64,000 bases of DNA from an uncultured Alphaproteobacteria bacterium (GCA_963850355.1 CAWKKP010000003.1:394660-458659); one strand, 5' to 3'; shown: positions 7,003-61,243, numbered from the stretch's first letter. Notes: generated by a model from the sequence alone, not told the origin. Translations and numbers: made by a program.

Positions 7003-7018
7003 TATCTAGGAACAATGC

Positions 7019-7049
7019 GGGGCCGGACATACGTTCGGCCCTGTTTTTT
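7019..7049 (+). terminator. Hairpin plus U-tract after the SBP gene (terminator or mRNA stabiliser)
   Basis: GGGGCCGGAC-ATAC-GTTCGGCCCT followed by GTTTTTT. Confidence 0.65.
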
Positions 7050-7157
7050 AGTAACGAATTTCCGGGGCTACCGTGACAACAGAAGTCGCCACATACACTG
7101 AAATCCTGGGGTGAATGGTTTGATCGCCACGCGCGCACATTTTTTATTGCGCCAGCT

Positions 7158-10348: not shown

Positions 10349-10374
10349 ACTATCCTCATTCAAAGTTGAAATTC

Positions 10375-20853: not shown

Positions 20854-21914
20854 GTAAGATACAAGTCTTGGTCGTAGGTGTCGGAAACATGGGCCTATCG
20901 CATGCTCGCGCCTATGCCGCCAACAGTGGTTTTGAACTCGTCGGATTATGCAGCAGAAACATTTCGAGCAGGAAAGATTTGGAAGCGGAGTTTCCAACCG
21001 TCTCTAAGTTCGACGACTACAACACCGCATTGCAAGCGACAAAACCTGATGCCGTCTCCATCAACACCTGGCCCGACACCCATGCGGAATATGCCATCAA
21101 GGCCTTGAATGCGGGATGCCATCTCTTCGTCGAAAAGCCACTGGCAGTGACTGTTGCCGGGGCAGAAGACATTGCGCAATTGGCACGGCGTAAAAATCTC
21201 AAGATTGTCATTGGCTATATACTGCGTGTGCACCCATCATGGGTGAAATTTGTTGAGGTTGGAAAGACGTTGGGCAAGCCCCTTGTCATGCGCATGAACC
21301 TCAATCAGCAATCGTCTGGCCCACAATGGGATGTGCACAAACACCTGATGAATTCGATTTCTCCCATCGTCGATTGTGGCGTTCATTATGTTGATGTCAT
21401 GTGCCAAGTCACAGGCGCAAAACCCAAACAGGTGCATGCCGTCGGCGTGCGCCTCACTGAAGACATCCACGAGAGCATGTACAACTATGGCCACCTCCAC
21501 GTCAGCTTCGATGACGGTTCCGTTGGCTGGTATGAAGCGGGCTGGGGCCCGATGATGAGTGAGACTGCCTTCTTTGTAAAAGACATGATCGGACCCAAAG
21601 GCTCCGTGTCAATTGCCATGGATAAGTCAAAGGCTGATTCATCTGACGTGGACGCCCACACAAAAACCTCGGCACTCCGCGTGCACCACAGCGGCTTGAA
21701 ATCTGACGGAACCTTCGCGCTTCAAGACGATGTCATACGCATGGATGATGAACCCGGCCATCAAGAACTCTGCAATCGCGAGCAAGCGCTTTTCCTTGAC
21801 GCCATCACAAATGATCGCGACATGACGCGACACGTCGAAGAGGCGATCAACTCCCTCCGCATTGTGCTTGCAGCCGATGAAAGTGTGCGGACAGGCAGAG
21901 TTGTTGAGTTATGA
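20850..21914 (+). CDS. Gfo/Idh/MocA family oxidoreductase
   Basis: GVGNMG Rossmann motif, VEKP and DCGVHYVD; ATGA overlap with nagA. Confidence 0.9.
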   Translation: MSKIQVLVVGVGNMGLSHARAYAANSGFELVGLCSRNISSRKDLEAEFPTVSKFDDYNTALQATKPDAVSINTWPDTHAEYAIKALNAGCHLFVEKPLAVTVAGAEDIAQLARRKNLKIVIGYILRVHPSWVKFVEVGKTLGKPLVMRMNLNQQSSGPQWDVHKHLMNSISPIVDCGVHYVDVMCQVTGAKPKQVHAVGVRLTEDIHESMYNYGHLHVSFDDGSVGWYEAGWGPMMSETAFFVKDMIGPKGSVSIAMDKSKADSSDVDAHTKTSALRVHHSGLKSDGTFALQDDVIRMDDEPGHQELCNREQALFLDAITNDRDMTRHVEEAINSLRIVLAADESVRTGRVVEL

Positions 21915-21922
21915 CGGTTTGA

Positions 21923-23406
21923 TCAGGCCCGCAGATAGGCGTCCAGCGCCTCGCGTTGCGATGCTGTTAGCACAAGACCGTGTTTGGTGCGCCGAAACAG
22001 AATATCCTCAGCCGTCTGCGCCCATTCATGTTTGCGCAAATAGGAGACTTCCACCGCATAAAGCAGACCGCCAAAATGCTGTCCCAAATCATCAACACTC
22101 TGAGCGTCCTTCAGGATCAACGCAGCTCGCGTGCCATAAAGCCGCGCATAATGCGTCACCAAGTCTTTCGGAAGTCCGCTGTACCGAGCCAGCAACTTTC
22201 CGAGGAAACCATCGAAATCACCATTCGGAATATCGCCGCCGGGCAGGGCAGCCGTCGCCGTCCAGTCCCCACTCATCTCGGGAAAGTAGGGCATGAGTTT
22301 CTGCAACGCATGCCCAGCCAACTTGCGATAGGTCGTGATCTTTCCACCAAACACAGAAAGCAGTGGCGGCTCACCTTCAACCTCGAAAACATAGTCACGG
22401 GTCACAGCCGAAGGATTGTCAGCATTGTCGTCATAAAGCGGGCGCACACCGGAGAATGAATGTAAAACATCCGCACGCACCAACTGCTTGCGGCTGTAAC
22501 GGTTCACCGCATCAAGCAGATATGAAATTTCAGTCTCAGCGATTGCGACTGTCTCAGCCTCGCCTTCATGCGGAATATCAGTTGTACCAATGAGTGCCAA
22601 ATTGCCTTGATAGGGGTTTACAAAAATCACTCGCTTATCAGTGTTCTGAAACAAATAAGCGTTAGGGCCGTCCCAAAATTTCTCAACAATGATGTGAGAG
22701 CCTTTCACCAGTCGCACTTTGCGCTTTGAGTTTGAACCCGTAACCGCCGTCAGAACTTTCTCAACCCAAGGCCCCGCTGCATTGGCAATTGCTTTGGCAT
22801 TTACATGTCGCACAGTGCCATTTGCGATTTCAATTCCACATCCCACACGCCATCAACACGACGAGCCGAAACTGCGCGTGTGCGCGTGTAAATCGTTGCA
22901 CCGCGTTCTTGAGCGTCCATCACATTCAATATAACAAGCCGCGCGTCGTCAACCCAACAATCTGAATATTCGAAAGCCTTGCGATACTTTTGTTGTATCG
23001 CATTTCCTTCGGGGTCGAGTGACAGATCAAGTGTCCGCGTACCAGGTAAATTTACCCGTCCACCTAAGTGGTCATACAGAAAAAGCCCAAGGCGGATCAG
23101 CCACGCTGGGCGTTGTTCGGGCGAGTGCGGAATGACAAAGCGCAGAGGCCAAACAATATGTGGTGCCGCATTGAGCAGCACTTCGCGTTCTATGAGAGCC
23201 TCACGCACCAATCGAAATTCATAATACTCGAGATAGCGCAACCCACCGTGAATGAGTTTGCCTGATCGCGAAGACGTGCCTTGTGCAAAGTCATCTTTTT
23301 CACAGAGCGCGACACGAAGTCCGCGACCTGCTGCATCGCGCGCGATGCCAGCACCGTTAATGCCGCCGCCAATGACGAGAAGATCAACTATCGCACTGTC
23401 TTTCAT
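21923..23406 (-). CDS. eryB: FAD-dependent polyol-phosphate dehydrogenase, GlpD/EryB type (1-base deletion near 22830)
   Basis: GGGINGAGIARDAAGRG, GTSSRSGKLIHGGLRYLEYYEFRLVREAL, DPEG, LVKGSH and GGKITTYR. Adding one A joins ..VELKIANGTVR..; ~494 aa, downstream of an eryA-like kinase. Confidence 0.8.
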
Positions 23407-23415
23407 AACAACACC

Positions 23416-24459
23416 TCAGCAGCGATTTATGGCAGGTTCACCCGCTAGATAACGTCGCACTTCTTCTGCTGCCAGTCCCGCTGCATATCTCACCGTATGA
23501 ACAGATGCGCCTGCAATATGCGGCGTCAACGTCACATTCGGCAATTGCAGCAACGGCAAATCCGGTGGAACAGGTTCGACGTTGAAAGTTTCCAGCATGG
23601 CACCGCGCAAATGCCCCTCCGACATCACACGATACAATGCGTCATAATCCAACAGCGGACCACGCGCGGTATTGATCAACGTGGCATCAGGTTTCATACG
23701 GCGCAGCATTTCTTCATTGATCATTTTAGTGGTTTCAGGCGTAACGCGCGCATGCAGAGAAATGACGTCTGCCTCGTCCAACACCTTATCAAGCGATGCA
23801 TGAACAACACCGTCGCGTAAATCTTCGGCAGTCAACTGCACATAGGGATCGCTGACGAGAATACGACAGCCGAACGCTTTCAGGAACTTCACAACCCGGC
23901 GTCCCACTTCGCCGTAGCCGACCAGCCCCACCGTCATTTCGTGTAACTCGCGGCCTGCAACATCAGCGCGATACAGGTCTCCGCGGTAGTTCCCCTTACG
24001 CAACGCGTCATGACCTCGCGTGATATTGCGCGTTTCCGAGAGGATCGCACCAATTGTAAACTCCGCAACTGCCGATGCATTGCGGCCCGGTGTATTAACG
24101 ACTGTAATGCCACGTTCACGCGCCGCGTTCATATCAATGTTCACAGGGCCACCACGCGAAACCGCCACAAATCTGAGATGTGGCAAACGTTCCATGATTT
24201 GGGCTGACAATGGGGCAAGATGTGTCACTAGAATTTCAGCATCAGCGACCAATGCCACAACCTCATCCGCCGTCCCCATGTATTCCTTGAGTCCATCCAT
24301 ACCAGGCGCCGCATAACCATGTTCCATCGGCTGATCCGGCCATTGTAAGTCATGGACAGAAATATCGAATTCGTAAAGTTTGCAGCGGTCGCGCAAGGCT
24401 TCTTCAAACATCTGGGAAAGCATGAACAAATCACCAATCACAGCGACTTTGCGTTTCAT
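23416..24459 (-). CDS. D-isomer-specific 2-hydroxyacid dehydrogenase family protein
   Basis: NTPGRNASAVAE, VGLVGYGEVG, LHAR, INTARG and TPHIAG; start overlaps the kinase stop. Confidence 0.9.
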   Translation of the reverse strand: MKRKVAVIGDLFMLSQMFEEALRDRCKLYEFDISVHDLQWPDQPMEHGYAAPGMDGLKEYMGTADEVVALVADAEILVTHLAPLSAQIMERLPHLRFVAVSRGGPVNIDMNAARERGITVVNTPGRNASAVAEFTIGAILSETRNITRGHDALRKGNYRGDLYRADVAGRELHEMTVGLVGYGEVGRRVVKFLKAFGCRILVSDPYVQLTAEDLRDGVVHASLDKVLDEADVISLHARVTPETTKMINEEMLRRMKPDATLINTARGPLLDYDALYRVMSEGHLRGAMLETFNVEPVPPDLPLLQLPNVTLTPHIAGASVHTVRYAAGLAAEEVRRYLAGEPAINRC

Positions 24460-26011
24460 CTCGTTGCTCCAAGTCCACGCCAAATGGGTCGCATGGCTTT
24501 GCGGGATTCGACGTAATGGGGAAATACCTTTTCATATCGCGCCGTCAATGCTTGTTCCGGTGCGGTCGTGTCACCAAGATGCGGCTCTACCCAAACCTCA
24601 GCACACTCCGTCATGTTGGAATAGAGCTTCTGCTGCACGGCAGCGATCATCGCGGCTCCTGCCGCACCTGATTCTTCTCGCGACACACTGCGTATGCCGG
24701 CATCGAGAACATTGGCGAGGATCGCGCGCAATGCTTTGGAACGTGCTGCACCACCCGTCACACGGATTTCCATGGGCATGGGCCCCATAGCCAGATAACA
24801 ATCACGCGCGGCAAATGCCAAGCCCTCAAACACACTGCGCATCATGTCGTAGTAATCCGTCGTCGTATCGAGACCATTAAACATTGCGCGAGCTGACGGC
24901 TCCATAAAGGGGCCACGTTCACCGGCCTTCGAGATATAGGGATGAAAAAGCAGTTTGGCCGGTTCGCGTGACAAGATTTTGTCGTCAATAGATTTAAGCA
25001 AATCAGCACGCGATTTTTCTACACCACTGTCTTGCAATATGCCGCGTGCCACATCAAGCCACCAGTCAATGTTTAATGTCGAGGCCATATTGGACTGGAT
25101 TTGCGCCACCATGCCAGGTGCGGGAAAAGCCATGGTGTAACCTGATTTTTCAGCATTCAATTGCACTTTCAACACATCAGACTGCAACCGCATATGCATG
25201 CCCGTCGATCCAACAATCGTACAACCAGACTGTCCCGTGGGATCATACTAGACCTCCACCAAGGCCAGTACAGAGAACATCGACATAGCCCAGGCAAACC
25301 GGAGTGCCCTTTTTCAAACCTGTGGCTTTTGCAGCTGCAGCGAGTGAGTTGCCCGCAAACATCAGTGCCATCGACAATCGGTGTTAACACTGATTTTGCA
25401 TTCGGGGCGCCAAGCTGATCGAGAATGTCAGGCAGATACGATCCTGACTTTTATAATCACCGAAAGTGAAGTTCGCTTCAGAAGGATCAGTCACCCTTTC
25501 GCCAGTGAGATTAAAATAGATCCAATCCTTGCAATGAAACGCATGGGTTGCCTTGGCCAAAACTTCAGGGCGGTGTCGATGCATCCACGCCAACTGCACA
25601 CTCATTTGACAGACATTCACGCCAGTTCCGGTGCGCGCATAATGCGCCGCATAATTCCCCCGACGTCGTGAACTCTTCGACGATTTCAGCAGCGCGCGCG
25701 TCAAGCCACAACCATGCGGGCGCTACCGGTGCCCCCGACTTATCAATCAGCCACATACCGTCACCTTGTCCCGTGACCGAGATTGCGATGAGCCGTGACG
25801 CAAGGTCGGGAATCTGTTCTGTGAGCTGCTTCAACGTGGCTGCCGTATCGCGCCATGTCCGCTGCATATCCTGTTCTACGCCACCATCAGGTAGTGTTTC
25901 GTAACTGTTGGTAACTGCGGCTGCAGCAAGCTGCGTGCCATCAGTTGAAAATGCAACGGACTTGATAACGGATGTACCCGCGTCAATACCAATAATTATG
26001 CCGTCCGTCAT
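24456..26011 (-). CDS. eryA: FGGY-family polyol kinase, erythritol kinase-like (four frameshifts at ~25659, 25440, 25342, 25249)
   Basis: IIIGIDAGTSVIK, VTGQGDG, WLDARA, HCKDW..LTGERVTDPSEANFTFG, GSTGMHMR and GERGPF. The pieces reassemble to ~517 aa and resemble Brucella EryA as I recall it. Confidence 0.75.
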
Positions 26012-26027
26012 TATCGCTCCAACGCAA

Positions 26028-27526
26028 TTAGCCCATGACCTTGGTGCCAAGGCTGTGGCCCACGTTGGCAACAGTTACAGGCTTCGCAACGCGCATTTCT
26101 TCTACGCTGCGCACATGTTGACGTGCAGCACCCGCCCAATCGCGTGTCTTCACTTTTGGATTGCGCATCCGTTCTTTTGCAGCTGGAATTGCGTGTGCGT
26201 ATTGAGGCAACCACTGGGCCTGCGCCACTATCATTTCATCAACCATCTGCCACACTTCATCCGGTGTACAAATGGCGCCAACAAGTGGATCATGCAACAC
26301 CGCTAGCTTCAGCAATTCCACATCACCCGTCATGGCGGCCTGTACCGACATGCGCTGCACGTTAATTGAAGACATGCAGGTTGCAGCACAGGCCAATGGC
26401 AATTCAATACCTTCCATCATATTGATTCCGAAATCGATCAACATATCCAGGTGATTCAACAATGCAATCTGTAGGAAGATTCTTGATCGTGCCGCTATTC
26501 TTAACATTGAAGTGGCCGCGATAGCCGCGTCCCGTTTCCATCGCTTCGATGATCCAGGACGCATGCTCATCCGTGCGTTGATAGTCCGCAAGCATTTTTC
26601 CAGCCTGTTCTAGAAACTGTGGAAAGTCTTGCTCAAACCAGTTCCGATTTTCAGTGCTGTAGCGCAGATATCCACCCGTCTCGCCGTGGATCCAGTCTGT
26701 CAACGAAATCCATTTGGTAATGTCCTCTGGGCGCTTGCGGTACCACGGCAGATATTCGGACAAATGCCCATTGGATTCCGTCGAATAAAATCCAAATCGT
26801 TTCAATACATCAATGCGGACTTTTTCTTGATCGGCAAATAACGGATGACTTCTCGAATGCCGCCACCAATTCATCCTTTGAAATCGTGCGTCCCTTGTGA
26901 TTGAGGCCAACATACCAAGTCTGGTGATTGATGCCCGAACAGATGATATCAAGTTCCGTGTGGTCTTTGATCTTCAGAGCCTGTGCAATCTGCCGCCATC
27001 CATTTTGTACGCCGTGACACAAACCAACGGTGTTGACCTTCCCGTAATCGATACAAGCCCAGGTGTTCATGGCCATGGGGTTGGCATAGTTGAGATGAAG
27101 CAAATCGCTATGGGCGAGTTCACGCATGTCTTTGCAGAAGTCCATCATGGCAGCCATGGTGCGCTGGCCATACATGATGCCGCCTGCGCAAATGGTGTCG
27201 CCGACGCATTGGTCAACGCCATACTTCAAAGGAATGTTGACATCAGTGGCATAGGCCTCAAGCCCACCAATGCGCACGCAGTTCATGATATATTTAGCAC
27301 CATCAAAAGCTTTGCGGCGGTCCGTTGTGGCCGTCACTTTCGTTGGCAACTTGTTCACATCAACAATGCGTTGAATGATTTGGGTGGCCATATCCAAGTT
27401 CTTGGCACTGATGTCTGTAAGTGCGATCTCAATGCCAGCGAATTCAGGGACTTTCAAAATATCACTGACAAGTTTCTTGGTAAACCCAATAGAACCCGCA
27501 CCAATGATTGCAATCTTGAAAGTCAT
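26028..27526 (-). CDS. Family 4 glycoside hydrolase, alpha-galactosidase-like second paralogue (frameshifts at ~26848, 26432)
   Basis: KIAIIGAGS, DTICAGG, NYANP, GLCHG, GINHQTW, TESNGHLSEY, VESP and DPLVGA. Removing two bases gives ~498 aa. Confidence 0.88.
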
Positions 27527-27536
27527 GACACGTACC

Positions 27537-29045
27537 TCATAAACTCCGTAAAAATGCTGCGTGTCCCAAAGCTTGTGGCGCGGCAGCGCGATATTCCCGC
27601 GTCAAACTATCAGCTGCAGCCTTAGCCTTCTTCTTCAATTCAGGCATGGCTTCCATCTGCTTTTGTGCAACGTCGCGATTGAGCAATCCCAATCCATCCA
27701 ATACCGGATAATGCAATTGCTGTTCAGTGTGGGCAAATCGACCCGGCAGGGGTGTGAAATCAGAGTAGTCAGGCATTTTGTTTTGCCAGGCCGCAAGGCG
27801 ATCTTTCGTCGGATTTCCAATGCAATGCTCGGCGACATGTTTCCAGAACGGCGTATCGCGCCGCGTTGTGACATAGTGCAGATTAATGAAATCGCGAAAG
27901 TCATCGACCTGGCGGCTTACAAAGGCGTTGTAAGTCTCGCGGTCTTGCACAACGCGGTTCATATGGAAATTTGTGAACACCATCATCTGCACCACGGTTC
28001 CGTGGATAGAAGTGGCTTCCAAGGGTTCTAGAAATGATGACGACAAGCCCAACGACAAGCAATTGTTGATCCAGGCATCTTTCTGGCGTCCCACATCAAA
28101 GCGCAAATCATTGCGCGGCTCAATCTTGTGTCCGAGAGTTTTCTCAATCTCGGCCTGAGCCTGCTCCGGATTCAAAAACGCATCGGAATAGACATAGCCA
28201 CAGCCAAAACGGGTTTGCGTGGGGATGGACCACAACCATCCGGAGTTTTGTGCCCAAGCCAGCGTATAGGGCGGAATTTCTTCCCCCTCTTTTAGATCAA
28301 TCCAAAATGGCATGGCCCGGTTGACAGGCAGTTGATCGCGGTAGGATACCCATTCGCCACCTAGCTCTTTGCCAATCAAGCTTTTGCGAAAACCAGTGCA
28401 GTCAAAGAAAAATTCGCCTTCAACCGGTTCACCATCGGTGAGCAGTTTTGTAATGTCTCCAGTTTCCGAACTGCGTTCCACGCCCATCACCTGCGCATCA
28501 ACCGTCACAACGCCTTTAGACTTTTTGCGCAACCATTTGCCCGCAAGCGCCTGATCAAAATGATAGGCATGGTGATAGGGACTCATGGCAATCAGATCGC
28601 CATTTGTTTTGCGCGCAAAAGGCGATTTATTCTGATCTAGCAGATAGCCGAACAAATGAGTGTCCGATACTTTTCGGCCTGCTGCTACAGAAAATATGTC
28701 GATGTAACTCTGCGGCACGCCACCTTGCGTCTCTAACACTAAATGCGGATCATCGATAGGACCGTCATACTGATGGCCCACCGCCTTCCAATCTTTATGC
28801 CTTATGCCGAATTTGATTGTCGCTTCCGTCTGGTGCAGAAACTCAAATTCGTCGAGGCCCAAGTGTTTCAACAATTGCCGAAACACTGCCGTTGTGCCTT
28901 CGCCCACACCGATGGTCGGAATCTTCGAGGATTCGACAACGGTGATCGTCGCATCCAACTTCTGACGCTTTGCCGCATCTTGCAACATTAACGCTGCAAG
29001 CCAACCCGCCGTTCCACCACCAACGATGACGTACCGCATTGTCAT
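27537..29045 (-). CDS. Tryptophan halogenase family flavin-dependent enzyme
   Basis: GGGTAGW FAD motif, IGVGEGT, ATIK78FG (position of PrnA K79), DCTGF, GWLWSIP (WxWxIP) and FLEPLEATSI; intact 502 aa. Confidence 0.9.
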   Translation of the reverse strand: MTMRYVIVGGGTAGWLAALMLQDAAKRQKLDATITVVESSKIPTIGVGEGTTAVFRQLLKHLGLDEFEFLHQTEATIKFGIRHKDWKAVGHQYDGPIDDPHLVLETQGGVPQSYIDIFSVAAGRKVSDTHLFGYLLDQNKSPFARKTNGDLIAMSPYHHAYHFDQALAGKWLRKKSKGVVTVDAQVMGVERSSETGDITKLLTDGEPVEGEFFFDCTGFRKSLIGKELGGEWVSYRDQLPVNRAMPFWIDLKEGEEIPPYTLAWAQNSGWLWSIPTQTRFGCGYVYSDAFLNPEQAQAEIEKTLGHKIEPRNDLRFDVGRQKDAWINNCLSLGLSSSFLEPLEATSIHGTVVQMMVFTNFHMNRVVQDRETYNAFVSRQVDDFRDFINLHYVTTRRDTPFWKHVAEHCIGNPTKDRLAAWQNKMPDYSDFTPLPGRFAHTEQQLHYPVLDGLGLLNRDVAQKQMEAMPELKKKAKAAADSLTREYRAAAPQALGHAAFLRSL

Positions 29046-30418
29046 TCAGCAGCTTGCCGTGGTTTATGCACGCGGGCAAATTCCGGCAACCAGTCTCCGT
29101 GGGCGGCCAGCAAATCATCGGTCAGATCCCAAATTTGTTGGAGATCCAATTCTGCCGCTGTGTGTGGGTCCATCATAGCGGCGTGGTAAATGTGTTCCCG
29201 ATTTTGGTCCACCAATGCACGCACTGTAAGCTCCTGCACATTGATGTTGGTGCGGATCAGCGCTGTTAACTGTGGTGGCAGAGCGCCCACGTAAGTCGGT
29301 TGGATGCCGCGATCATCTACCAGACAGGGTACCTCTGCTGCACAATCATCCGGCAGTGAAGTGATGCAACCATTGTTGCGCTGGTTGCCGTAGATGACAG
29401 ACGGTTCACCAGTCCAGACCGAGTTAACAATGGAGGATGCATATTCGTGCGACGCTTCAACTTTGATGGTTTCTGCAGCTTTGAAATCAGCCGAGTTTTT
29501 TTTCCAACGGGCAATTTGTTCGATGCAGCGCTTTGGATACTCGTCCAGTGGAATACCAAATTTCTCGATCAAGTCCTCGCGGCCCTCTTTGATAAAGTAC
29601 GGCGTGTACTCTGCGAAATGCTCTGAACTTTCAGTAACGAAATAACCAAGCCGCTTCAACATTTCATAACGCACCTTGTTGGGGCAACGCAGATTCCAGT
29701 GGGATGGCTTGGGGAATCGGCCTTCTTCATAGCCACGCAATAAATCAGGATACAAGTTGCGATACGAACCGTCTTTCTGGCGGTGCTCGAAATTCAAGTA
29801 GAACGCCATGTGGTTAATACCTGCCGCACGGTAGCGGATTTCCTCAACCGGGATGTCAAGATCACGCGCCAGTTCGTAAGCCGTGCCCTGTACGGAATGA
29901 CACAAGCCCACTTGTTTGATCTTGGGGTATTTCTGCGAAATGGCCCAGGTGTTAATTGCCATGGGGTTCACATATTGCAGCAAATGCGCGTCAGGGCAGA
30001 TTTGCATCATGTCCTCGCAAATCTTCCAAAGATGCGGCACGGTACGGAGGCCGCGCATAATGCCACCGACGCCCAAGGTGTCGGCAATGGTTTGGCGCAA
30101 ATTGTATTTCTTTGGCACTTCAAAGTCAGTGACAGTGCACGGTTCGTAACCACCAATTTGAAATGCAACCACCACGAAGTTTGCACCTTGTAGCGCATTC
30201 TTTTGATTGGTGTGGGTTTCAACCTTGGCTTTCACACCAAGCGTCTTGATGATTTTTCCAGCAACAATTTCAAACTCACTCAAACGCTCAGGGTTGATAT
30301 CCATCAAAGCGATGGTAGCGCCCGACGTAGCGGGACGTTGAAGTATATCGCCGATGATATTTTTCATGAACACTGTTGAGCCAGCGCCGATGAACGTAAT
30401 ACGTGGATTTGCGGACAT
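29042..30418 (-). CDS. melA: Alpha-galactosidase, GH4 (MelA-like)
   Basis: RITFIGAGSTVF, QTIADTLGVGG, QYVNPM, GLCHSVQG, AGINHMA, TESSEHFAEY and AMMDPHTAAEL; intact 458 aa. Confidence 0.92.
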   Translation of the reverse strand: MSANPRITFIGAGSTVFMKNIIGDILQRPATSGATIALMDINPERLSEFEIVAGKIIKTLGVKAKVETHTNQKNALQGANFVVVAFQIGGYEPCTVTDFEVPKKYNLRQTIADTLGVGGIMRGLRTVPHLWKICEDMMQICPDAHLLQYVNPMAINTWAISQKYPKIKQVGLCHSVQGTAYELARDLDIPVEEIRYRAAGINHMAFYLNFEHRQKDGSYRNLYPDLLRGYEEGRFPKPSHWNLRCPNKVRYEMLKRLGYFVTESSEHFAEYTPYFIKEGREDLIEKFGIPLDEYPKRCIEQIARWKKNSADFKAAETIKVEASHEYASSIVNSVWTGEPSVIYGNQRNNGCITSLPDDCAAEVPCLVDDRGIQPTYVGALPPQLTALIRTNINVQELTVRALVDQNREHIYHAAMMDPHTAAELDLQQIWDLTDDLLAAHGDWLPEFARVHKPRQAAE

Positions 30419-30435
30419 GGTTTATTCCTCTTTCG

Positions 30436-32058
30436 TCAAGCAGCAATGTCAAATGCTGCGCGCACAAGGCGCTTGGTGTAGTCGGTTTTAGGGTTGGTCA
30501 ATACATCGGCCACGGGACCGTGTTCCATGATTTTTCCGTTCTGCATGACGATGACGCGGTGGCACAAAGCCCGCACCACTTTCAAATCATGGGAGATGAA
30601 TAGATAAGAGAGCCCGCGCTCGCGTTGCAGTTTGCGCAAAAGTTCAATGATCTGGGCCTGCACCGATAGATCCAGCGCCGACGTCGGTTCATCCAACATG
30701 ATGAATTCTGGTTCCATGGCAATGGCGCGGGCGATGGCCAAGCGTTGACGTTGTCCCCCTGAAAATTCATGGGGGAAGCGCGAGAGAATATCCGTGGGCA
30801 TGCCGGAATCGGTGAGGGCCTGCTTCACCCGTTCCAGTCGATCTGCATCGCTGCTGCCAATACTGTTGACGATCAATCCCTCTTCAATAATTTGCCGCAC
30901 ACTCATGCGCGGGTTCATGGATGAGAAGGGATCTTGAAACACAATCTGCATGCGTTTGCGGAAAGGGCGGAGGCCATCTCGGTCAAGTTTTTCAATGCGA
31001 CGACCATCAAAACTGATCTCGCCCTCTTGCGGATTGAGCAATCGAATAAGGGCTTGGCCAAAGGTGGTTTTGCCCGAGCCAGACTCACCCACGAGCCCTA
31101 AGGTTTCGCCGCGCTTCAAATCTAAACTCAATCCATCAACGGCTTGCAGCGGGTGATAGGTGGCATTGAAAAATCCACCCTTCTTGAGTGTGTAAGTCAC
31201 CCGCACATTGTTGCCCACCAGAATGCTGGGTTGTTCACCCACCAGCGGATTGGCAATGCCTTTGGGGTCTGACGACAACAAACGTTTGGTGTAAGGGTGC
31301 TGCGGTTTTTCAAACAGTGCTTTGGTGAGGTTATGCTCTTTCACCTCGCCATGCTGCATCACGTAAACACGATCCGCAAATTGGCGCACCACCGTCAAAT
31401 CATGGGTGATCAGAATCACAGCCATGCCGTACTTGTCTTTGAGGTCTTTGATCAGGTTTAGAATTTGCGCCTGCACAGTCACGTCCAGCGCCGTCGTTGG
31501 TTCATCGGCAATCAAAATATCGGGGCGATTTGCCAGTGCCATGGCAATCATCACGCGTTGGCGCTGACCACCAGAGAGTTGATGCGGATATTGCTTGATG
31601 CGCGATTCAGGATCAGGAATTTGCACTTCACGCAAAAGCTCCAGCGCCTTGGCTTGGGCGTCCTTCCGAGAGATTTTATTGTGGAGGTGCAGCACTTCGC
31701 AGATTTGCGAACCGATGGTGTAAACTGGATTGAGGGAACTCATTGGTTCCTGAAAAATCATAGATACACGCGAGCCGCGCAGCTTCCGCATTTCGTTTTC
31801 CGGCAGTTTCAAAACATCTTGCCCCGCCATGATGATTTGTGCGTCTTTGCCAACTGTCGCGCGCTTGGTCAGCAGCCGCATGATGGCGCGGGCGGTGACG
31901 GATTTACCTGAACCTGACTCCCCCACAATCGCGATCGTCTCACCTTTGCGCAAAGCAAAGCTGACGTTCTTAACCGCATTCACAACGCCGCCCTCCACTT
32001 TGAAGGACACGGCCACATTGCGGGCTTCGAGGATAATGTCGTTGGTGTTTTCCATCAT
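30436..32058 (-). CDS. agpD: ABC transporter ATP-binding protein with two NBDs (peptide/nickel family), alpha-galactoside importer
   Basis: Two GESGSGK Walker A motifs, LSGGQRQR and FSGGQRQR, two DEPT motifs; start at 32058 or 32055. Confidence 0.9.
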   Translation of the reverse strand: MMENTNDIILEARNVAVSFKVEGGVVNAVKNVSFALRKGETIAIVGESGSGKSVTARAIMRLLTKRATVGKDAQIIMAGQDVLKLPENEMRKLRGSRVSMIFQEPMSSLNPVYTIGSQICEVLHLHNKISRKDAQAKALELLREVQIPDPESRIKQYPHQLSGGQRQRVMIAMALANRPDILIADEPTTALDVTVQAQILNLIKDLKDKYGMAVILITHDLTVVRQFADRVYVMQHGEVKEHNLTKALFEKPQHPYTKRLLSSDPKGIANPLVGEQPSILVGNNVRVTYTLKKGGFFNATYHPLQAVDGLSLDLKRGETLGLVGESGSGKTTFGQALIRLLNPQEGEISFDGRRIEKLDRDGLRPFRKRMQIVFQDPFSSMNPRMSVRQIIEEGLIVNSIGSSDADRLERVKQALTDSGMPTDILSRFPHEFSGGQRQRLAIARAIAMEPEFIMLDEPTSALDLSVQAQIIELLRKLQRERGLSYLFISHDLKVVRALCHRVIVMQNGKIMEHGPVADVLTNPKTDYTKRLVRAAFDIAA

Positions 32059-32062
32059 CACC

Positions 32063-33214
32063 TCAATAGGGGTCAATCGCATCGCGTAAGCCATCGCCCA
32101 GCGCATTGAATGCGAAGACGGCGAGCAGCACGAAACCAACGGGTGAGAGAATCCACGGATAGGAGCCGATGACCGAGAAGGTGCCAGTATCTTGCAACAT
32201 CAACCCCCAGGAAATCAGCGGTGGCTTCACGGCAAATCCTAAGAAGCCAAGGAAAGATTCCAACAACACGATGGCCGGTATGCCAAGTGTGACCGCCACG
32301 ATCACATGCGACATGACGTTTGGCAGAATGTGCCGCAAGATAATGCGCTTGTCGCTGGCACCCACAGCTTGTGCCGCACGCACATATTCAATGCGGGCCA
32401 GCGACAAGGTTTTGGCGCGCACTTCAACCGACAATCGGGCCCAGCGAATAAGCGCCATGACGATGACCACAAATATCAGAAACACGGATGTTGGTGCCGT
32501 AACAGGAATGAGGGTTGTTAAAGTGAGGAAGAGCGGCAGTTCAGGGAAGGCCAGAAAGATTTCCACAACACGTTGCGTCCAAGTGTCAAAGCGCCCACCC
32601 AAATAGCCTGATGTCATACCCACCAAGGTTCCAACGATGGTGATAAAAGCCACTGTCACCAAGGCAATGGCCAATGAAATCCGTGAGCCGACAATCCCTC
32701 GTGATAAAATATCGCGACCGAATTTGTCAGTGCCCAGCAGATGAAAAGGTTTGCCATCATCGGTTCCAAATAAATGCAAGTCGGATGGAATGAGCCCAAG
32801 TGTCTTATACTTATAACCCCGCACAAAGAACTTGATGGGACGCGGATTATCATAGTCCGGCCCGATGAGGGGTTGGAACGTTATGGGGTCCAACTCTGTG
32901 CCTTCTTTCATGGCATAGGTTTGTGGGCGGAGCGTATAACCGTCTTTGCCAGAAAAGCCTGACGGATCAGGTGGCGCATAGGCAATGAACGGCGTCTTTG
33001 GTTCGACGGGTGCCACAAAATCCGCGAATACGGCGATCAGCAACAACAAGCCAACCAATATCAATCCCAACATGCCAGTGACGGAACGGCGCAACTTGCG
33101 CCACACCAGTGTGGCGTAGCCTTCGCTTTTAGCAAAACGAGATGAAGCGGGTGCTGCATCAAGGTAGGATGCATCTTCTTGCTTCACGAAGGGTGCGAAC
33201 AGATCTTTGCTCAT
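32063..33214 (-). CDS. agpC: ABC transporter permease (OppC-like)
   Basis: LGTDKFGRD, RIEYVRAAQAVGA and ILRHILPN; synteny with agpA. Confidence 0.88.
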   Translation of the reverse strand: MSKDLFAPFVKQEDASYLDAAPASSRFAKSEGYATLVWRKLRRSVTGMLGLILVGLLLLIAVFADFVAPVEPKTPFIAYAPPDPSGFSGKDGYTLRPQTYAMKEGTELDPITFQPLIGPDYDNPRPIKFFVRGYKYKTLGLIPSDLHLFGTDDGKPFHLLGTDKFGRDILSRGIVGSRISLAIALVTVAFITIVGTLVGMTSGYLGGRFDTWTQRVVEIFLAFPELPLFLTLTTLIPVTAPTSVFLIFVVIVMALIRWARLSVEVRAKTLSLARIEYVRAAQAVGASDKRIILRHILPNVMSHVIVAVTLGIPAIVLLESFLGFLGFAVKPPLISWGLMLQDTGTFSVIGSYPWILSPVGFVLLAVFAFNALGDGLRDAIDPY

Positions 33215-34212
33215 GCCGCATCTCCCAAACGAATGCGGGGGTCCATCCAGGCCAGCAACATATCTGCGAGGATATTGCCAAGTATGAGTGTTGCACCCAA
33301 TATCAACATCAAGGTGCCCGTCACCAAAACATCGCCGCGATACATGGAGCCGACAATGGCAGGGCCAATAGTTGGCAGTGAAAAAATAATGGCAACTTCA
33401 ATTTCGCCCGTGAGCATGTAAGGCAACACAACAGCCTGATAGCCGATCAGCGGATGCAACGCATTCGGCACGGCATGTTTCATGATGACGCCGGCTTCGC
33501 TCATGCCCTTGGCGCGCGCGGTTTCAACATATTGGGCGTTCAAAGTGTCAAGCAAGTTGGCGCGCATGACCCGCATGTTATAAGCGAGGCCGCCAATGGT
33601 TGCGATCAACACAACAGGCCAAATGTGTCTCACCAAATCCAGAAATTTTGCCCACGACATGGGCTGGCCACCATACTTCGTCGAGTAAAATGAACCCAGT
33701 TCCTGCACATTGAAGTGGAATGCCATGAAGTAAAGAATGATCAGCGCCATAAGGAAACGCGGGATGGTCATGCCGAGGAATGTGAAAATCGAGAGAATTG
33801 TATCAACCCAGGAATACTGTTTGGTGGCTGCCAAAATACCGAGGCCGATGCCAAACAGTGTTGCCAAGAAATGGCAAACCAAAGCGATGCCAAGCGTTGC
33901 AGGCAAACGTTGCCACACTACTTCTGAAACCGGCCTGTTGTAAAAATAACTGTGCCCGAAATCACCGACAAAAAAGCCTTTAATCCAGCGAAAATATTGG
34001 AAGACAATGGGGTCATTCAGGCCATTATCGATACGGAATTTTTCTGCAGCGGCACGCGCCACTTCGTCAGACACATTGTTGAACAGCAACATGCCCTCAA
34101 TATAGTCTGCGTAATCGCCAGGCGGCGCCTGAATGATGCCATAGGTCAGCACGCTCATCACGAAGAGAACGGGAATGGCGGAGAAAATGCGTATGGTGAA
34201 ATAGCGGAGCAT
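33211..34212 (-). CDS. agpB: ABC transporter permease (OppB-like)
   Basis: APPGD, GDFGHS, YVETARAKG and HAVPNA; ATG 34212 preferred. Confidence 0.88.
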   Translation of the reverse strand: MLRYFTIRIFSAIPVLFVMSVLTYGIIQAPPGDYADYIEGMLLFNNVSDEVARAAAEKFRIDNGLNDPIVFQYFRWIKGFFVGDFGHSYFYNRPVSEVVWQRLPATLGIALVCHFLATLFGIGLGILAATKQYSWVDTILSIFTFLGMTIPRFLMALIILYFMAFHFNVQELGSFYSTKYGGQPMSWAKFLDLVRHIWPVVLIATIGGLAYNMRVMRANLLDTLNAQYVETARAKGMSEAGVIMKHAVPNALHPLIGYQAVVLPYMLTGEIEVAIIFSLPTIGPAIVGSMYRGDVLVTGTLMLILGATLILGNILADMLLAWMDPRIRLGDAA

Positions 34213-34232
34213 GGGGATTCTGAGAAAAGAAC

Positions 34233-34358
34233 GAAGAGACCTCACCCACCACTGCTTCGCAGCGGTCCCCCTCTCCAGAGGAGAGGGAGAGGCTTAATGC
34301 GCTCCCAGTCGCTTCTCCTCCGGAGAAGCTGGCGCGCAGCGCCTGATGAGGTCTCTTC
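34233..34358. repeat. RIME/REP-like palindromic intergenic element
   Basis: 12-bp terminal inverted repeat GAAGAGACCTCA..TGAGGTCTCTTC enclosing internal hairpins (CCCTCTCC..GGAGAGGG, CTTCTCC..GGAGAAG, GGCGC..GCGCC) typical of alphaproteobacterial mosaic repeats. Confidence 0.8.
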
Positions 34359-34365
34359 CTTTTCG

Positions 34366-36435
34366 TTACTTCATCACACCCTTGCCACCTGGCACATCAG
34401 CCAGTGTGTTCGGGTACACTTCGTGTGACGCTTGCTTGTCCTTTGGCACATACACGCGCTCACGGATGATGTTATCTTCAGCCCAGTTGTACATGAAGAT
34501 TGGAGCGCCCGGCGCAATATTGGCAAAGCGCTTGTTCATGATGAGTGCACCTGGATACTGGGTCAGACCAGCCCAGTAGACATTCTCAGTCGCGATCTTC
34601 TGGTAGTCCTTCATCAAAGCAATACGTTCAGCTGTGTCTTTCGACGCGATGAACTTGTTGACGATCTCTACCAACTGCTTTTCGAAGTCGAGCAAATCAA
34701 CCTCACCCTTGCCGTCACCCGACTGATGGAACTCGCTGGTTGTTGGTCCGATTGGTGCCAGTCGTGCGGTGTTTTGCACAGCGGTCGACAGCTCCTGATT
34801 GGCGCGCCAGACGTGCCAGTCAAACTTGCCGGACTTGCGGGCGTTGTCGCGGTCATTGCCAGCCATCAGGTTGGGAATGATGCGCAGGCCGACTTGCTCA
34901 CCCATGGCGACGATGCCTTCGGCAAGAGACTTGTCTGAACCATAGTCCAAATTGCTCAACACTGTGATTTCAACATCCTTGCCACCATCTGGGTGGTTCA
35001 GAATACCGTTACCATCAGTGTCTTTCAAACCGGCGAGGGCAAATTCAGCTTTTGCGGCTTCCACATCGAACGGATAATAAACCGTCGAAGCTTTGTCGTA
35101 GTAGGTATTGTCGCCGTAAAGGCCGCCGGGATAAATCGCGGTGAACGGACCTTTCACCAATGACTCGCCCAAGCGTTGACGATCCAACATTGAGGTCACG
35201 CCTTTGCGGAAGTTCAGGTTGCGGTTCAACTTGCGCATCGACTTGGCGCGATCATCGGGTTCACCCCAGGCATTGTCGCTCAGGTTAAAGTGCAACACAT
35301 AGCCGATGGTGCGTTGGCCAAATTCAAGTCGGGCTGGTGAAGCAGGGTCAGCCGCTTTCTTGAGAGCTTCAACATAGTTTTCAGCTTGCTCAAGGTTTGA
35401 GAAGTCGCCTGTGCCTGCAACGGCTTGCACGTCACGATCGCCCCATGTGGACAAACGGTAATGCATTTCATTGAGGTAGGGCAGCTGCTGGCCAGTTTCG
35501 TCCACTTTCCAATAATAGGGATTGCGGCGCAGAATCACGATGTCATCGGGGCGGTGTTCAACCACAACCCAAGCACCCAGTGTTGGCATGCCCATATAGG
35601 ACGGACCAAAAGCATTCTTATACTGCTCATAGGTGTTCTTGGAATTCTTCGGATGCTGCGGCGCCAAGATATGCGACGGGCCAGGGCAGAAGTTCATGTA
35701 GGACATGGAATACAGAACTTGCGTCGGGAAGGCGTCCTTGAACGTCCACTTGATGGTGTAGGCATCAACTTTTTCAAGTTCGGTTCCAGCACCAAATGTT
35801 TCAACCGACTCACCACCCAAAGGATTGACCTCAGGATCTTTGATGTTGAATTCCCAGTGATACATGATGTCATCGGCGTCAAAAGCGTCACCGTCAGACC
35901 ATTTGGCACCTTCGATCAGCTTCATCGTCAATTGTTTGCCGTCAGCCGACCATTCCCAAGATTTGGCAACGTTTGGCAGCGGGGCCAATTCTTCAGCCTT
36001 CACCTGGAACAACGGTCCGGTGCGCGTCAGGCATTCCTGCAAACCAATGTCGATGCCGCCCCAACCTTGTGATTGACCAGCCCAATAGTTCCAACCCTCA
36101 GGACGACCACCAATGACGTGGCGCATAACATCGCCATAGACGCCAACGCCGTCTTTCATGTTGCCGGTTTTGTAAACCATTGGCTCTTTTGGCAGGCGGT
36201 CTTTCACAGCGGGCAGCTTGCCAGCGTCAACCAAAGCTTTCACAAAGTCTGGCTCGCTATAGGCAGGCAGCGCTTTATATTCGAGAATGTCGTTGATGCC
36301 GACAAAAGTGACTTTGCCTTGGGCATCGAACGCAGGCGCATCCGGCACGGCTGTCATCATGGCATCGGCCATGACAGCAGTTGCCGAAACACCCAACGCC
36401 AGCATGCCGGCGACAAGGGTTGTAATTTTTTTCAT
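34366..36435 (-). CDS. agpA: Alpha-galactoside-binding periplasmic protein (SBP family 5)
   Basis: Signal peptide; GVYGDVMRHVIGGRPEGWNY, QGWGGIDIG, CPGPSHIL and NWAEDNIIRERV closely match Sinorhizobium AgpA as I recall it; lies upstream of GH4 genes. Confidence 0.9.
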   Translation of the reverse strand: MKKITTLVAGMLALGVSATAVMADAMMTAVPDAPAFDAQGKVTFVGINDILEYKALPAYSEPDFVKALVDAGKLPAVKDRLPKEPMVYKTGNMKDGVGVYGDVMRHVIGGRPEGWNYWAGQSQGWGGIDIGLQECLTRTGPLFQVKAEELAPLPNVAKSWEWSADGKQLTMKLIEGAKWSDGDAFDADDIMYHWEFNIKDPEVNPLGGESVETFGAGTELEKVDAYTIKWTFKDAFPTQVLYSMSYMNFCPGPSHILAPQHPKNSKNTYEQYKNAFGPSYMGMPTLGAWVVVEHRPDDIVILRRNPYYWKVDETGQQLPYLNEMHYRLSTWGDRDVQAVAGTGDFSNLEQAENYVEALKKAADPASPARLEFGQRTIGYVLHFNLSDNAWGEPDDRAKSMRKLNRNLNFRKGVTSMLDRQRLGESLVKGPFTAIYPGGLYGDNTYYDKASTVYYPFDVEAAKAEFALAGLKDTDGNGILNHPDGGKDVEITVLSNLDYGSDKSLAEGIVAMGEQVGLRIIPNLMAGNDRDNARKSGKFDWHVWRANQELSTAVQNTARLAPIGPTTSEFHQSGDGKGEVDLLDFEKQLVEIVNKFIASKDTAERIALMKDYQKIATENVYWAGLTQYPGALIMNKRFANIAPGAPIFMYNWAEDNIIRERVYVPKDKQASHEVYPNTLADVPGGKGVMK

Positions 36436-36625
36436 CTATAGTCCTCCCAAAAGGTACCCGTTTTTTATGTGCACACGCGTTGTCCGCGATTTTAGATTAT
36501 AGTCGTGCTTGGACAGCGCGATGCGACCATGATCGCGCCAATAACGGCGAGCGACAATCCGAAAAACAAAACATTGGTTCCGGGTTTTTAAGATTGACAA
36601 AAATCTCCACCCAGCCGCTAATGTC

Positions 36626-37575
36626 GTGGTGAAGAAGCCAACACCCTCAACCGAAGTCATGTCGCCGGAGCGGCGGTTCTATTCCCGCAGCAAGGCGTTT
36701 GGCCGTTTCGGCATGCGTATTTTCAAGCCAACATTGATGGCTCATCCTCATTGGCATGGTCATGTCGAGGCAAACTTCGTCCGCAATGCCCGCTTACATT
36801 ATATCGTCGATGGTGAGCGCTTGGTTGTCGAGCCAAACCAATTGGTTTTATTTTGGGCTGGCGTGCCGCATCAACTGGTTGCTGTCGAAAACCTCGAAAA
36901 ATCAGAAGCTGAACTTTGCAATATCTACCTGCCGCTCGACACATTTCTGTTCATGCCCCACATCGCAAATTTGCAAGTCGCATTGCTCACTGGCGGCATG
37001 GTGGTTTTTCCGCACGATCTTTGTGTTTCGGACATTTTAAGCGATGGTACATTGATTACCGCGCCAATGATCCAGAACGATTGGACATTTTGAAACTGGA
37101 ACTCAGTGCCGTGTTTCGCCGCGTTGGTTTGGCTCCCTTGGAGTTTCTGAAAAAACCCTGGCAGCTCCAATCTGAATCCAACAGCTTGCATTCACCCCAT
37201 GTGCGCCATGTGGTAGCGATGGTGCGCCATGTGTTGGAAAATATTGCCGAGCCATTGCGCAATGAAAATGTGACCCGCGTTACGGGCCTTCATACCAACT
37301 ACGCACTGGTGCTTTTCACCCGCACCATGAACATTTCCTTGAAACAATTCATCATCCGCATGCGACTTCTAAAGGCCCGCGGCATGCTACTCGAAAGCGA
37401 TTTGGCCATTACGACGATTGCTGCTGAAAGCGGCTTTGGTTCAACAAGCCAGTTTTATGCGCATTTTTCAGCGGCCTATGATACCTCACCGCAACAATTG
37501 CGCGACAACTACCTGAAGTCCTCGGTCAAAGCGGCGTTGATAAACGCGCAACCCAGAAACGCGATTCCAGCCTGA
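36626..37575 (+). CDS. AraC-family regulator, MelR/AgpT-like (1-base deletion near 37035)
   Basis: Cupin HWHGHVEANF..FWAGVPHQL in 36626..37093; C-terminal HTH (GLHTNY..MRLLKAR..SGFGSTSQFY) in 36916..37575; divergent from agpA. Confidence 0.88.
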
Positions 37576-37582
37576 AGAACTT

Positions 37583-38335
37583 TCACGCCACCAATTGCGC
37601 AACGAGGGCATCAATCATGCGTGGCAGGTCATAGGGAAACCGTGCCGTGATCAAATTGCCATCCACCACGCAAGGTTCATCGATGACCGTGGCACCAGCA
37701 TTTTCGATATCAATTTGAATGTTCCAAACGGCAGTGGCCTTTTTGCCCTTCAGCATTTTTGCACTCACCATCACCCAAGGCCCATGGCAAATGCCGCACG
37801 TTGGTTTTCCAGCGGCATGCATATCTCGTACAAAATCTTGAGCAAGTTTATCGGCGCGCAGAAAATCGGGGTTCCAACAACCGCCCGGTAAAATAACAGC
37901 GTCGTAGTCTTTGACTTTCGCTTCATCCAGATAGGTATCAATTTTCAACCATCCCGCATTTTCCATCAGGCGTATGGCAAGCACATGGGTTTTGGTTTGT
38001 TCCGGAAAGCGCAAACCCAGCGTGGCCGGAAACTCACCAATACGTGGTGCAACAATATGAACAACAGCGCCATGCTCAGTCAGCCAACGCATCGACCCCA
38101 GAATTTCCACTTCTTCCACACCATTGGTGCAGCAGATCGCAATTTTCTTGCCTTTGAGCAAATTTGGATTGCTCGGCGGATCAAACAAAAAGCGATGCAG
38201 TTCCTGATTGAGATTGCCATCGGCCGTTGCCAACAATTCGGTCGATATGGAAGGCACTGGCGATGTGGACATGAACTGCTGCATGCGATGTAAAATAGCT
38301 TCGGTGGCCGTGGTGGGTGCGACTGGCTTGTTCAT
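37583..38335 (-). CDS. DJ-1/PfpI family protein (type 1 glutamine amidotransferase fold, glyoxalase/deglycase-like)
   Basis: NGVEEVE, YDAVILPGG, GICHGP (nucleophile Cys-His), DGNLITAR; ~60 aa N-terminal extension. Confidence 0.88.
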   Translation of the reverse strand: MNKPVAPTTATEAILHRMQQFMSTSPVPSISTELLATADGNLNQELHRFLFDPPSNPNLLKGKKIAICCTNGVEEVEILGSMRWLTEHGAVVHIVAPRIGEFPATLGLRFPEQTKTHVLAIRLMENAGWLKIDTYLDEAKVKDYDAVILPGGCWNPDFLRADKLAQDFVRDMHAAGKPTCGICHGPWVMVSAKMLKGKKATAVWNIQIDIENAGATVIDEPCVVDGNLITARFPYDLPRMIDALVAQLVA

Positions 38336-38428
38336 GGCAAACTCCCGTTTTTGAGATAGCGCAGCTTCCGATGTTTACGTGCTGTCGTCCAGAGAATTCA
38401 TTGACAAGTCAGCCATTCCGGATTGAAC

Positions 38429-38443
38429 TTTGATTCAATCAAA
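38429..38443. promoter_or_regulatory. Perfect 7-1-7 palindrome, candidate operator
   Basis: TTTGATT-C-AATCAAA between a TTGACA (38401-38406) and the GGGAG RBS of the epimerase gene. Confidence 0.45.
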
Positions 38444-38456
38444 AGCGGGAGTCGTC

Positions 38457-39305
38457 ATGAAATTTGGGTTCAACCTGTTGCTGTGGACACCCCACGTCAC
38501 GGCAGAGCATTTGCCAATTTTGCGCGCCCTGAAAAAGGCAGGTTATGACGGCGTGGAGATTCCAGTATTTGAAGGAACGCCCGAACATTATGCATGGCTG
38601 GGGGGCGAACTTGACAAGTTGGGGTTGGGGCGCACCACCGTCAGTGTGCTCGGTCCCGGTAATAATCCATTGTCATCTGACAAGGCCCAACAGAAGGCGG
38701 CCCTTGACCGGGCAAAGTGGGTCATTGATTGTAACGCCGCTTTGGGGTCCGAGATTCTAGGTGGACCCATGCATTCCGAACTTGGGTATTTTTCAGGAAA
38801 CCCCGCGACCAAGCAGGAGCGTGCCCGAGCCATTTCGTTCCACCGCAAAGCTGGTGACTATGCTGCCAAGAAAAACGTGCGCTTCGCCCTAGAAGCTCTC
38901 AATCGCTTTGAGTGCTATTTATTGAACACCATGGAACAACTGGGTGACTATCTCGACGAGGTTGACCACCCTGCAGTGAAAGCCATGTACGACACGTTTC
39001 ATTCTAACATCGAAGAAAAAGATCCAATTGCTGCCATCAAAACCATCAAGCGGCACCTCATCCATGTTCACATCTCAGAAAACGATCGCGGCACGCCCGG
39101 TCGCGGTCATTTGCCATTGGACGCAACTTACAAAGCTTTGAAGTCCGCCAAATACGATGGCTACATGACCATCGAAGCCTTTGGTCGTGCAATGCCTGCA
39201 TTGGCCGCAGCAACCCGCGTCTGGCGTGACTTCTTTCCAAACCGAGAACAAGTGTACCGCGAAGGCCTGAAAAACATGAAGCAGGGTTGGGCCAAAGCCC
39301 GATGA
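38457..39305 (+). CDS. Sugar phosphate isomerase/epimerase, D-psicose/D-tagatose 3-epimerase family
   Basis: GYDGVEIP, EALNRFECY, YDTFHSNIEE, HVHISENDRG and IEAF metal-binding pattern. Confidence 0.88.
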   Translation: MKFGFNLLLWTPHVTAEHLPILRALKKAGYDGVEIPVFEGTPEHYAWLGGELDKLGLGRTTVSVLGPGNNPLSSDKAQQKAALDRAKWVIDCNAALGSEILGGPMHSELGYFSGNPATKQERARAISFHRKAGDYAAKKNVRFALEALNRFECYLLNTMEQLGDYLDEVDHPAVKAMYDTFHSNIEEKDPIAAIKTIKRHLIHVHISENDRGTPGRGHLPLDATYKALKSAKYDGYMTIEAFGRAMPALAAATRVWRDFFPNREQVYREGLKNMKQGWAKAR

Positions 39306-59652: not shown

Positions 59653-59726
59653 TTGATCCGGCCCTTGTCGGCTCTCATGTTTCCCTGTAGTGAAAAAATT
59701 GATTTTGACATTCACAGGCATGAGAC

Positions 59727-60839: not shown

Positions 60840-60850
60840 GGGGGCGCATC

Positions 60851-61231: not shown

Positions 61232-61243
61232 GAGCTCACGATC

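Follow-up and report, generated by a model that had tools for sequence, protein, structure and literature searches.

Three polyol genes behind an alpha-galactoside locus in an Aestuariivirga species: a probable composite operon joined by relocation

The locus described here raises the question of why genes for the import and cleavage of alpha-galactosides share one gene row with genes for polyol-phosphate catabolism. It lies in a 64,000-nucleotide stretch of DNA (the window) from an uncultured alphaproteobacterium (GCA_963850355.1, CAWKKP010000003.1:394660-458659), whose host is an Aestuariivirga species of the order Hyphomicrobiales, and comprises ten genes on the minus strand (36435-21923) in the order agpA, agpB, agpC, agpD, GH4a, a flavin-halogenase-like gene, GH4b, and genes for a sugar kinase, a 2-hydroxyacid dehydrogenase and a GlpD-like dehydrogenase. 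An earlier reading, made from the sequence alone (the sequence-only reading), had treated them as a single operon for the use of a galactosyl-polyol. The gene identities and the physical join between the two halves of the row stood up to our analysis, but a conserved linkage of these halves in relatives did not. We consider it rather more probable that the row is a composite operon of two known modules, specific to one Aestuariivirga species and joined by a lineage-specific relocation. Below, the genome under study is called G000, with contigs C1, C3, C6 and C8, and its congeners G007, G020, G021 and G001.

The first module (36435-26028, with a divergent regulator gene beyond it), identified from homology and gene order, is the rhizobial alpha-galactoside locus plus a halogenase homologue, consisting of an AraC-family regulator gene and agpABCD-agaL2 (GH4a)-halogenase-like gene-agaL1 (GH4b). 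The agpA product matched those of Sinorhizobium meliloti pSymB and Rhizobium etli agpA at 63-64% identity across 94% of its length, and the R. etli counterparts of agpB, agpC and agpD were 67%, 70% and 71% identical, respectively, while GH4a was 82% identical to R. etli agaL2 and GH4b 71% identical to agaL1. As in the rhizobial agp locus, we found an AgpA-type binding protein gene with two permease genes and a fused ATPase gene downstream, two GH4 genes, a divergent AraC activator gene and a structured repeat after agpA. Alpha-galactosidases of the GH4 family depend on NAD+ and Mn2+. On R. etli plasmid pA the order is AraC, then agaL1-agpA-B-C-D-agaL2, so that the GH4 genes flank agpABCD, whereas both lie on the 3' side here; a halogenase homologue between the GH4 genes and the three appended polyol genes are further differences from the rhizobial arrangement, which has been described for S. 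meliloti as a melibiose/raffinose system (PMC4254191) and there reads agpT-melA-agpABCD. The agpABCD, GH4a, halogenase-like and GH4b genes occur together in five relatives (G007, G020, G021, G006 and G031, the last with a different orientation), and the module is shared by three or more Hyphomicrobiales families.

The second module (26011-21923) is predicted to be eryA-rbtA-like-eryB, coding for a polyol kinase and for two dehydrogenases of polyol phosphates (together, the trio). Compared with the ery locus of S. meliloti, the kinase was 54% identical over 503 aa, the 2-hydroxyacid dehydrogenase 64% and the GlpD-like protein 63% (read-through translations were used for the split genes), which bears out the eryA- and eryB-like names given earlier; against eryA of congeners the kinase reached 81-83%. 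A xylulokinase was rejected as its identity, the XylB model giving 222 bits against a cut-off of 380 bits and the locus homology pointing to eryA. The matched S. meliloti locus codes for a SorC regulator, a permease, two ATPases, a carbohydrate kinase, a 2-hydroxyacid dehydrogenase and a class II aldolase, and further on for a glycerol-3-phosphate dehydrogenase, an aldolase, an FGGY kinase, a sugar-phosphate isomerase, DeoR and TIM. We take the 2-hydroxyacid dehydrogenase gene after eryA in S. meliloti to be rbtA. The erythritol/adonitol/L-arabitol locus of Geddes et al. holds eryD, mptABCDE, eryA, rbtA, fucA1, eryB, rbtBC, eryC, eryR, tpiB and rpiB, and published homologue cut-offs are 46% for EryA, 50% for RbtA and 65% for EryB (PMC3599248); the EryA (54%) and RbtA-like (64%) proteins of G000 lie above theirs. 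Kinase, 2-hydroxyacid dehydrogenase and GlpD-type dehydrogenase genes stand in the same order here as in S. meliloti. The difference is that only these three genes are present, behind an alpha-galactosidase gene, and that no polyol ABC importer, EryD/EryR regulator, eryC, tpiB, rbtBC or lalA was found within the cluster.

To see how the trio is arranged elsewhere, we used a set of 80 loci (one genome per species, queried with the 2-hydroxyacid dehydrogenase; 70-88% identity, mostly Aestuariivirga). An eryA-like kinase gene adjoins the rbtA-like gene in 76 of the 80. Downstream sequence was long enough to look for eryB in 71 loci, and 50 of these have an eryB-like gene no more than 600 nt further on. 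Genes resembling eryC and TIM are each present in 30 of 80, usually together. The native locus of A. litoralis has TIM and eryC-like genes on one side, then genes for a SorC regulator, a CUT1 binding protein, two permeases and two ATPases, followed by eryA, the rbtA-like gene and eryB. Congeners carry a locus of the S. meliloti type, in which genes for a SorC regulator and for a CUT1 importer with two ATPases lie alongside, as do genes resembling eryC and TIM, and the trio in relatives usually sits beside its own regulator, ABC importer, eryC and tpiB. That ery genes normally occupy a separate locus, as had been stated before, agrees with these 80 loci.

If the ten genes formed a single pathway, as the sequence-only reading proposed, the compound brought in by AgpABCD would be an alpha-galactosyl polyol, such as a floridoside-like molecule or galactosyl-erythritol, -ribitol or -arabitol. 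Galactose would be freed from it by the GH4 enzymes, EryA would phosphorylate the remaining polyol, and either the RbtA-like enzyme or EryB would turn the resulting polyol phosphate into a ketose phosphate by oxidation. The distribution of the two modules speaks against this. Homologues of agpA, GH4a, GH4b or the halogenase-like gene (at least 35% identity) were near the trio in none of the 80 loci, 54 of which had 8 kb or more of sequence ahead of eryA. Nor did the trio follow the agp-GH4-halogenase locus in any of the five loci of congeners and order relatives with usable flanks; downstream of the agp module, relatives carry xylB-xylA, hemerythrin and cco genes, a cation antiporter gene or a GH51 arabinofuranosidase gene. 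The congeners with an identifiable agp locus (G007, G020 and G021) possess both modules on different contigs, and in G001 eryA-rbtA lies on a contig other than that of a partial halogenase match. A degenerate junction pattern ("...VMG stop, 20-50 nt, IGIDAGT") searched for in metagenome contigs returned seven matches, none with GH4b before the kinase gene, and in two of the seven eryA stood behind ABC ATPase genes, the native arrangement. A lack of conserved linkage in relatives, which the sequence-only reading had itself named as evidence against its proposal, is what we found. Because the linkage is not conserved, a galactosyl-polyol substrate would be a hypothesis for this species and not a conserved pathway.

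How, then, did the trio come to lie behind GH4b? In a related locus (L015; 2-hydroxyacid dehydrogenase 88% identical) the order is pepN, a tpiB-like and an eryC-like gene, these transcribed towards pepN, then eryA, the rbtA-like gene and, further on, hemY. The corresponding region of G000 (C3, 345.5-350.7 kb) has pepN and the tpiB-like gene followed almost directly by hemY, with the eryC/eryA/rbtA-like segment missing; the tpiB-like gene is 70 kb from the cluster. A search of G000 found no Mpt-type binding protein (best match 25%), no EryD (31%) and no EryC orthologue (only a 57% paralogue in another context). Since the genome is without the transporter, the regulator and the eryC orthologue that belong to the trio, the trio must have been relocated, its source being the ery/pentitol locus of its own genus. 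The limits of homology mark the join closely: similarity to GH4b of G007 ends about 7 nt past the stop codon, and similarity to eryA of L015 begins a few nt before the ATG.

We examined the join in independent material by aligning Logan contigs of public biofilm-metagenome runs (X1, X2, X3, X5 and X9 among them) to the region and using contigs 97-99% identical to it. The join is spanned by contigs of runs X2, X3 (identical over 25887-26061), X5 and X9 (divergence 3%). The join between GH4b and eryA that had been noted in the assembly is therefore real; it is specific to one Aestuariivirga species and present in strains about 3% diverged. Differences between strains fell at third codon positions in 29 of 34 cases in eryA and in 12 of 14 in the rbtA-like gene, which shows purifying selection on these relocated genes. 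The spacer between GH4b and eryA is too short to hold an intergenic promoter. Given the persistence of the join in diverged strains and this purifying selection, GH4b and the trio are likely to be co-transcribed, and read-through from the agp promoter would be the simplest route of expression, because there is neither intergenic space nor a regulator of the trio's own in the genome.

Taken as a composite operon, the locus would work as follows. AgpA would bind periplasmic alpha-galactosides, AgpBCD would import them, and the two GH4 alpha-galactosidases would release galactose. The genes eryA, rbtA-like and eryB were excised from their native locus and inserted 16 nt behind agaL1, with the importer, regulator and eryC of the trio left behind. 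Read-through from an AraC-controlled agp promoter would then transcribe the trio, so that polyol-phosphate oxidation would be switched on along with the use of galactosides. The substrate of the trio could be either the aglycone of the imported galactoside or a free polyol.

The first of these two possibilities leads back to the heteroside, now as a route that a recent operon fusion would have created in one species, AgpABCD and the GH4 enzymes delivering the polyol aglycone. The tight 16-nt join with its GGAG, leaving no room for an intergenic promoter, is in keeping with such a route, as is its persistence across the diverged strains with their third-position-biased differences. Because the importer and regulator of the trio have been lost from the genome, its substrate and its induction must come from elsewhere, and by homology to S. 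meliloti a pentitol could be handled by just the kinase and the NAD-dependent dehydrogenase, with neither eryC nor tpiB needed (PMC3599248). On the other hand, the modules are linked in none of the loci or pattern matches searched, AgpA, AgaL1 and AgaL2 are unremarkable orthologues, at 63-82% identity, of melibiose/raffinose proteins, and no gene here points to a candidate natural substrate. The floridoside version suffers in addition from the fact that its glycerol aglycone is already served by a canonical glpD-glpK pair on the same contig (C3, 252.7-255.7 kb), which makes glycerol an unlikely aglycone and a less likely substrate of the trio. We regard the heteroside pathway as unlikely, and hold the idea that the fusion created such a route in this one species to be equally doubtful.

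Several observations weigh against the composite-operon reading that we favour, and some of them keep the heteroside alive. A 16-nt junction that brings a Shine-Dalgarno sequence with it resembles a coupling under selection more than a chance, neutral event, and both the loss of the trio's transporter and regulator and the continuing purifying selection suggest the same. We infer co-transcription rather than observe it: a scan of 21500-37800 for sigma-70 promoters and intrinsic terminators gave counts no better than those of shuffled sequence, and none at the GH4b/eryA junction, and a search for RNA runs yielded only ones of unknown library type. The EryB-like protein, at 63%, falls just under the 65% cut-off, and it also scores 809 bits on the generic glycerol-3-phosphate-dehydrogenase model NF009906. 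Finally, the coding indels of the assembly are clustered, with seven in 4.7 kb, none of them in a homopolymer, against none in 9 kb, and strain-specific decay retains some probability as their source.

These indels affect three catabolic genes. Aligned with its intact counterparts in G007 and G020, GH4b shows one-base insertions near 26850 and 26434, which spread it over three frames; the kinase gene has four frame changes at 25654, 25444, 25343 and 25248 (three-frame translation), and the GlpD-like gene lies in two frames with one base missing at 22825. The AraC regulator gene is likewise in two frames; its G020 orthologue is intact at 268 aa, and read-derived contigs show indels at 37024-37038. 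The order and identities of the ten genes that had been reported hold, but only six of the ten open reading frames are intact in the assembly, the frameshifts having been overlooked. One explanation is that GH4b, eryA, eryB and the AraC regulator gene are true pseudogenes in this strain and that the trio is a non-functional, decaying remnant on its way to being lost. The clustering of the seven frameshifts outside homopolymer runs, the absence of an EryC orthologue, the Mpt importer and EryD from the genome, and the split in the regulator gene would fit such decay.

The read check pointed the other way. None of the seven indels in the three catabolic genes occurs in the contigs of any run covering them (up to six runs from two studies), and all four runs carry an extra base at 22825. 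Over the 9 kb that run from agpA as far as the halogenase-like gene, comparison with the same contigs showed no coding indel. In the GH4b segment, all six substitutions relative to run X1 fell at third positions of the corrected frame. All but one of the seven events add a base, contrary to the usual deletion bias, and we saw neither in-frame stops nor an excess of non-synonymous change. Genome-wide, 13 of 123 genes in a reference-based sample were split, and a share of about 10% is implausible for a free-living genome that is 97.7% complete. Because about a tenth of the sampled genes are split in the same way, we consider it quite probable that the seven frameshifts are errors of the assembly consensus, and otherwise that they are very recent lesions specific to the strain; a decaying remnant is in our estimate improbable. 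Under either account of the frameshifts, the GH4b, kinase and GlpD-like genes are intact in the population. Counts of open-reading-frame coverage and of stop-to-stop overlap were also tried as a genome-wide frameshift census and dropped as too noisy. Elsewhere in G000, pepN (C3 345537-348161), an FGGY gene (C1 58020-59566) and a TIM gene (C6 38353-39082) look fragmented as well; indels in this genome tend to occur in groups, most of them as one added base away from homopolymers, and claims at the level of open reading frames need a check against reads.

The features of the locus are collected in Table 1. Recomputing the open reading frames reproduced the ten same-strand genes at the coordinates first given for them, and searches with Pfam and NF-model profiles upheld the family names. 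The junctions are as tight as had been described, with overlaps or spacers of 4-17 nt except between agpA and agpB: agpB and agpC overlap by 4 nt, agpC and agpD are separated by about 4 nt and agpD and GH4a by 17 nt, GH4a overlaps the halogenase-like gene by 4 nt, 10 nt separate the latter from GH4b and 16 nt, including GGAG, separate GH4b from the kinase gene, which itself overlaps the 2-hydroxyacid dehydrogenase gene, and 9 nt precede the GlpD-like gene. A convergent GntR/SIS/NagA/Gfo operon terminates 8 nt from the last gene of the cluster. A megablast against plasmids gave only partial matches of about 73% to Rhizobium melA/agp, and Rfam gave no match (E<=0.1) over 21000-38500.

Table 1. 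Predicted features of the locus, in the order of transcription of the cluster (positions counted in the window).
Feature	Coordinates	Strand	Evidence
Divergent AraC-family regulator, AgpT-like (cupin + HTH_18)	36626..37575	+	Pfam matches for both pieces
agpA, periplasmic alpha-galactoside-binding protein (SBP_bac_5)	34366..36435	-	PF00496, 182 bits
Intergenic mosaic repeat, three GC-rich hairpins, agpA/agpB	34246..34365	-	Folding, genome repeats
agpB, permease	33211..34245; start probably ATG ~34212	-	Opp/Nik-type permease models
agpC, permease	32063..33214	-	Opp/Nik-type permease models
agpD, fused double ABC ATPase	30436..32139; probable start 32058	-	YejF-type model, 658 bits
GH4a, predicted alpha-galactosidase, agaL2 orthologue	29042..30418	-	NF011657, 684 bits
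Flavin-dependent-halogenase homologue, intact	27537..29045	-	PF04820, 357 bits
GH4b, predicted alpha-galactosidase, agaL1 orthologue	26028..27526	-	Read-through NF011657, 573 bits
GH4b/eryA fusion junction, 16 nt with GGAG	26012..26027	-	Homology limits, spanning contigs
eryA-like FGGY polyol kinase	24456..26011	-	Three-frame translation, S. meliloti homology
D-2-hydroxyacid dehydrogenase, intact, rbtA-like	23416..24483	-	PF02826/PF00389
eryB/GlpD-type FAD dehydrogenase	21923..23406	-	Read-through NF009906, 809 bits

The halogenase homologue (compared across loci L002-L006 and L096-L108) is, from its distribution, the one non-canonical gene truly conserved with agp and GH4. Among 401 order-level genomes, 15 from three families have an orthologue, and in 12 of 13 further halogenase loci a GH4a, GH4b or agpA gene lies no more than 1.5 kb away; the agp loci of R. 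etli and S. meliloti are without it. Aligned to SttH (5hy5), the protein retains GxGxxG, the catalytic Lys, WxWxIP and the Glu of EPLE. It shares the family motifs with the Trp halogenases PrnA, SttH and RebH at a similarity-level match of about 35%, and differs from them in its setting, a catabolic sugar operon without biosynthetic genes or a flavin reductase gene. A literature search on halogenase homologues in polysaccharide loci returned nothing relevant, and this putative enzyme is the most consistently unexplained element of the alpha-galactoside operon. Directly after, or within a few kb of, the agp-GH4-halogenase module, a gene for a GH51 alpha-L-arabinofuranosidase lies in two loci (L012 of G006, 9517-11028, and L013 of G031, 6160-7743), which belong to different families.

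The agpA/agpB gap (120-150 nt) contains an element of three hairpins (minimum free energy -68.9 kcal/mol, z -4.84) whose modules recur at about eight other sites in the genome; several copies are grouped within 1.5 kb at C8 307370-308860. By its palindrome architecture and genomic repetition, the element resembles repetitive extragenic palindromes (REP) and the rhizobial intergenic mosaic element RIME: it is short and intergenic, made of GC-rich palindromes with strong structure, and its modules are scattered in the genome. The gap had been described as filled by a RIME, and of this the short, palindromic, repeated element stands, a putative RIME by its architecture; the RIME1/RIME2 consensus is that of Rhizobiaceae, and the present host lies outside that family.

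Three further observations concern polyol genes. Within eryA, other strains are about 91% identical over 24546-25448 against 97-99% in the flanks, and contigs of three runs end their alignment at 25448; the tract may reflect recombination or allelic replacement. On C1 of G000 (58000-62640), an intact eryA-like paralogue (71% identity) stands beside a gene for a 481-aa protein resembling iron-type alcohol and glycerol-1-phosphate dehydrogenases, together with a second, split FGGY kinase gene and a SorC regulator gene, which looks like another polyol route. The PLSDB record CP090106.1 (L095), a 3.72-Mb S. meliloti "plasmid pSymB", holds the ery/mpt locus and appears to be a mislabelled chromosome.

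If the join is merely a regulatory or neutral rearrangement, two well-known pathways stand side by side, and the practical lesson is that about one in ten genes of this assembly carries frameshifts without read support. If the heteroside reading is true, the assembly of a pathway by gene relocation would have been caught in the act, and the locus would offer genetics its first entry into the breakdown of galactosyl-polyols by bacteria. A functional fusion would represent a dated, traceable assembly of a new catabolic operon in which donor locus, recipient operon, 16-nt junction and leftovers are all identifiable, and it would provide a concrete candidate for the use of heterosides in phototrophic biofilms.

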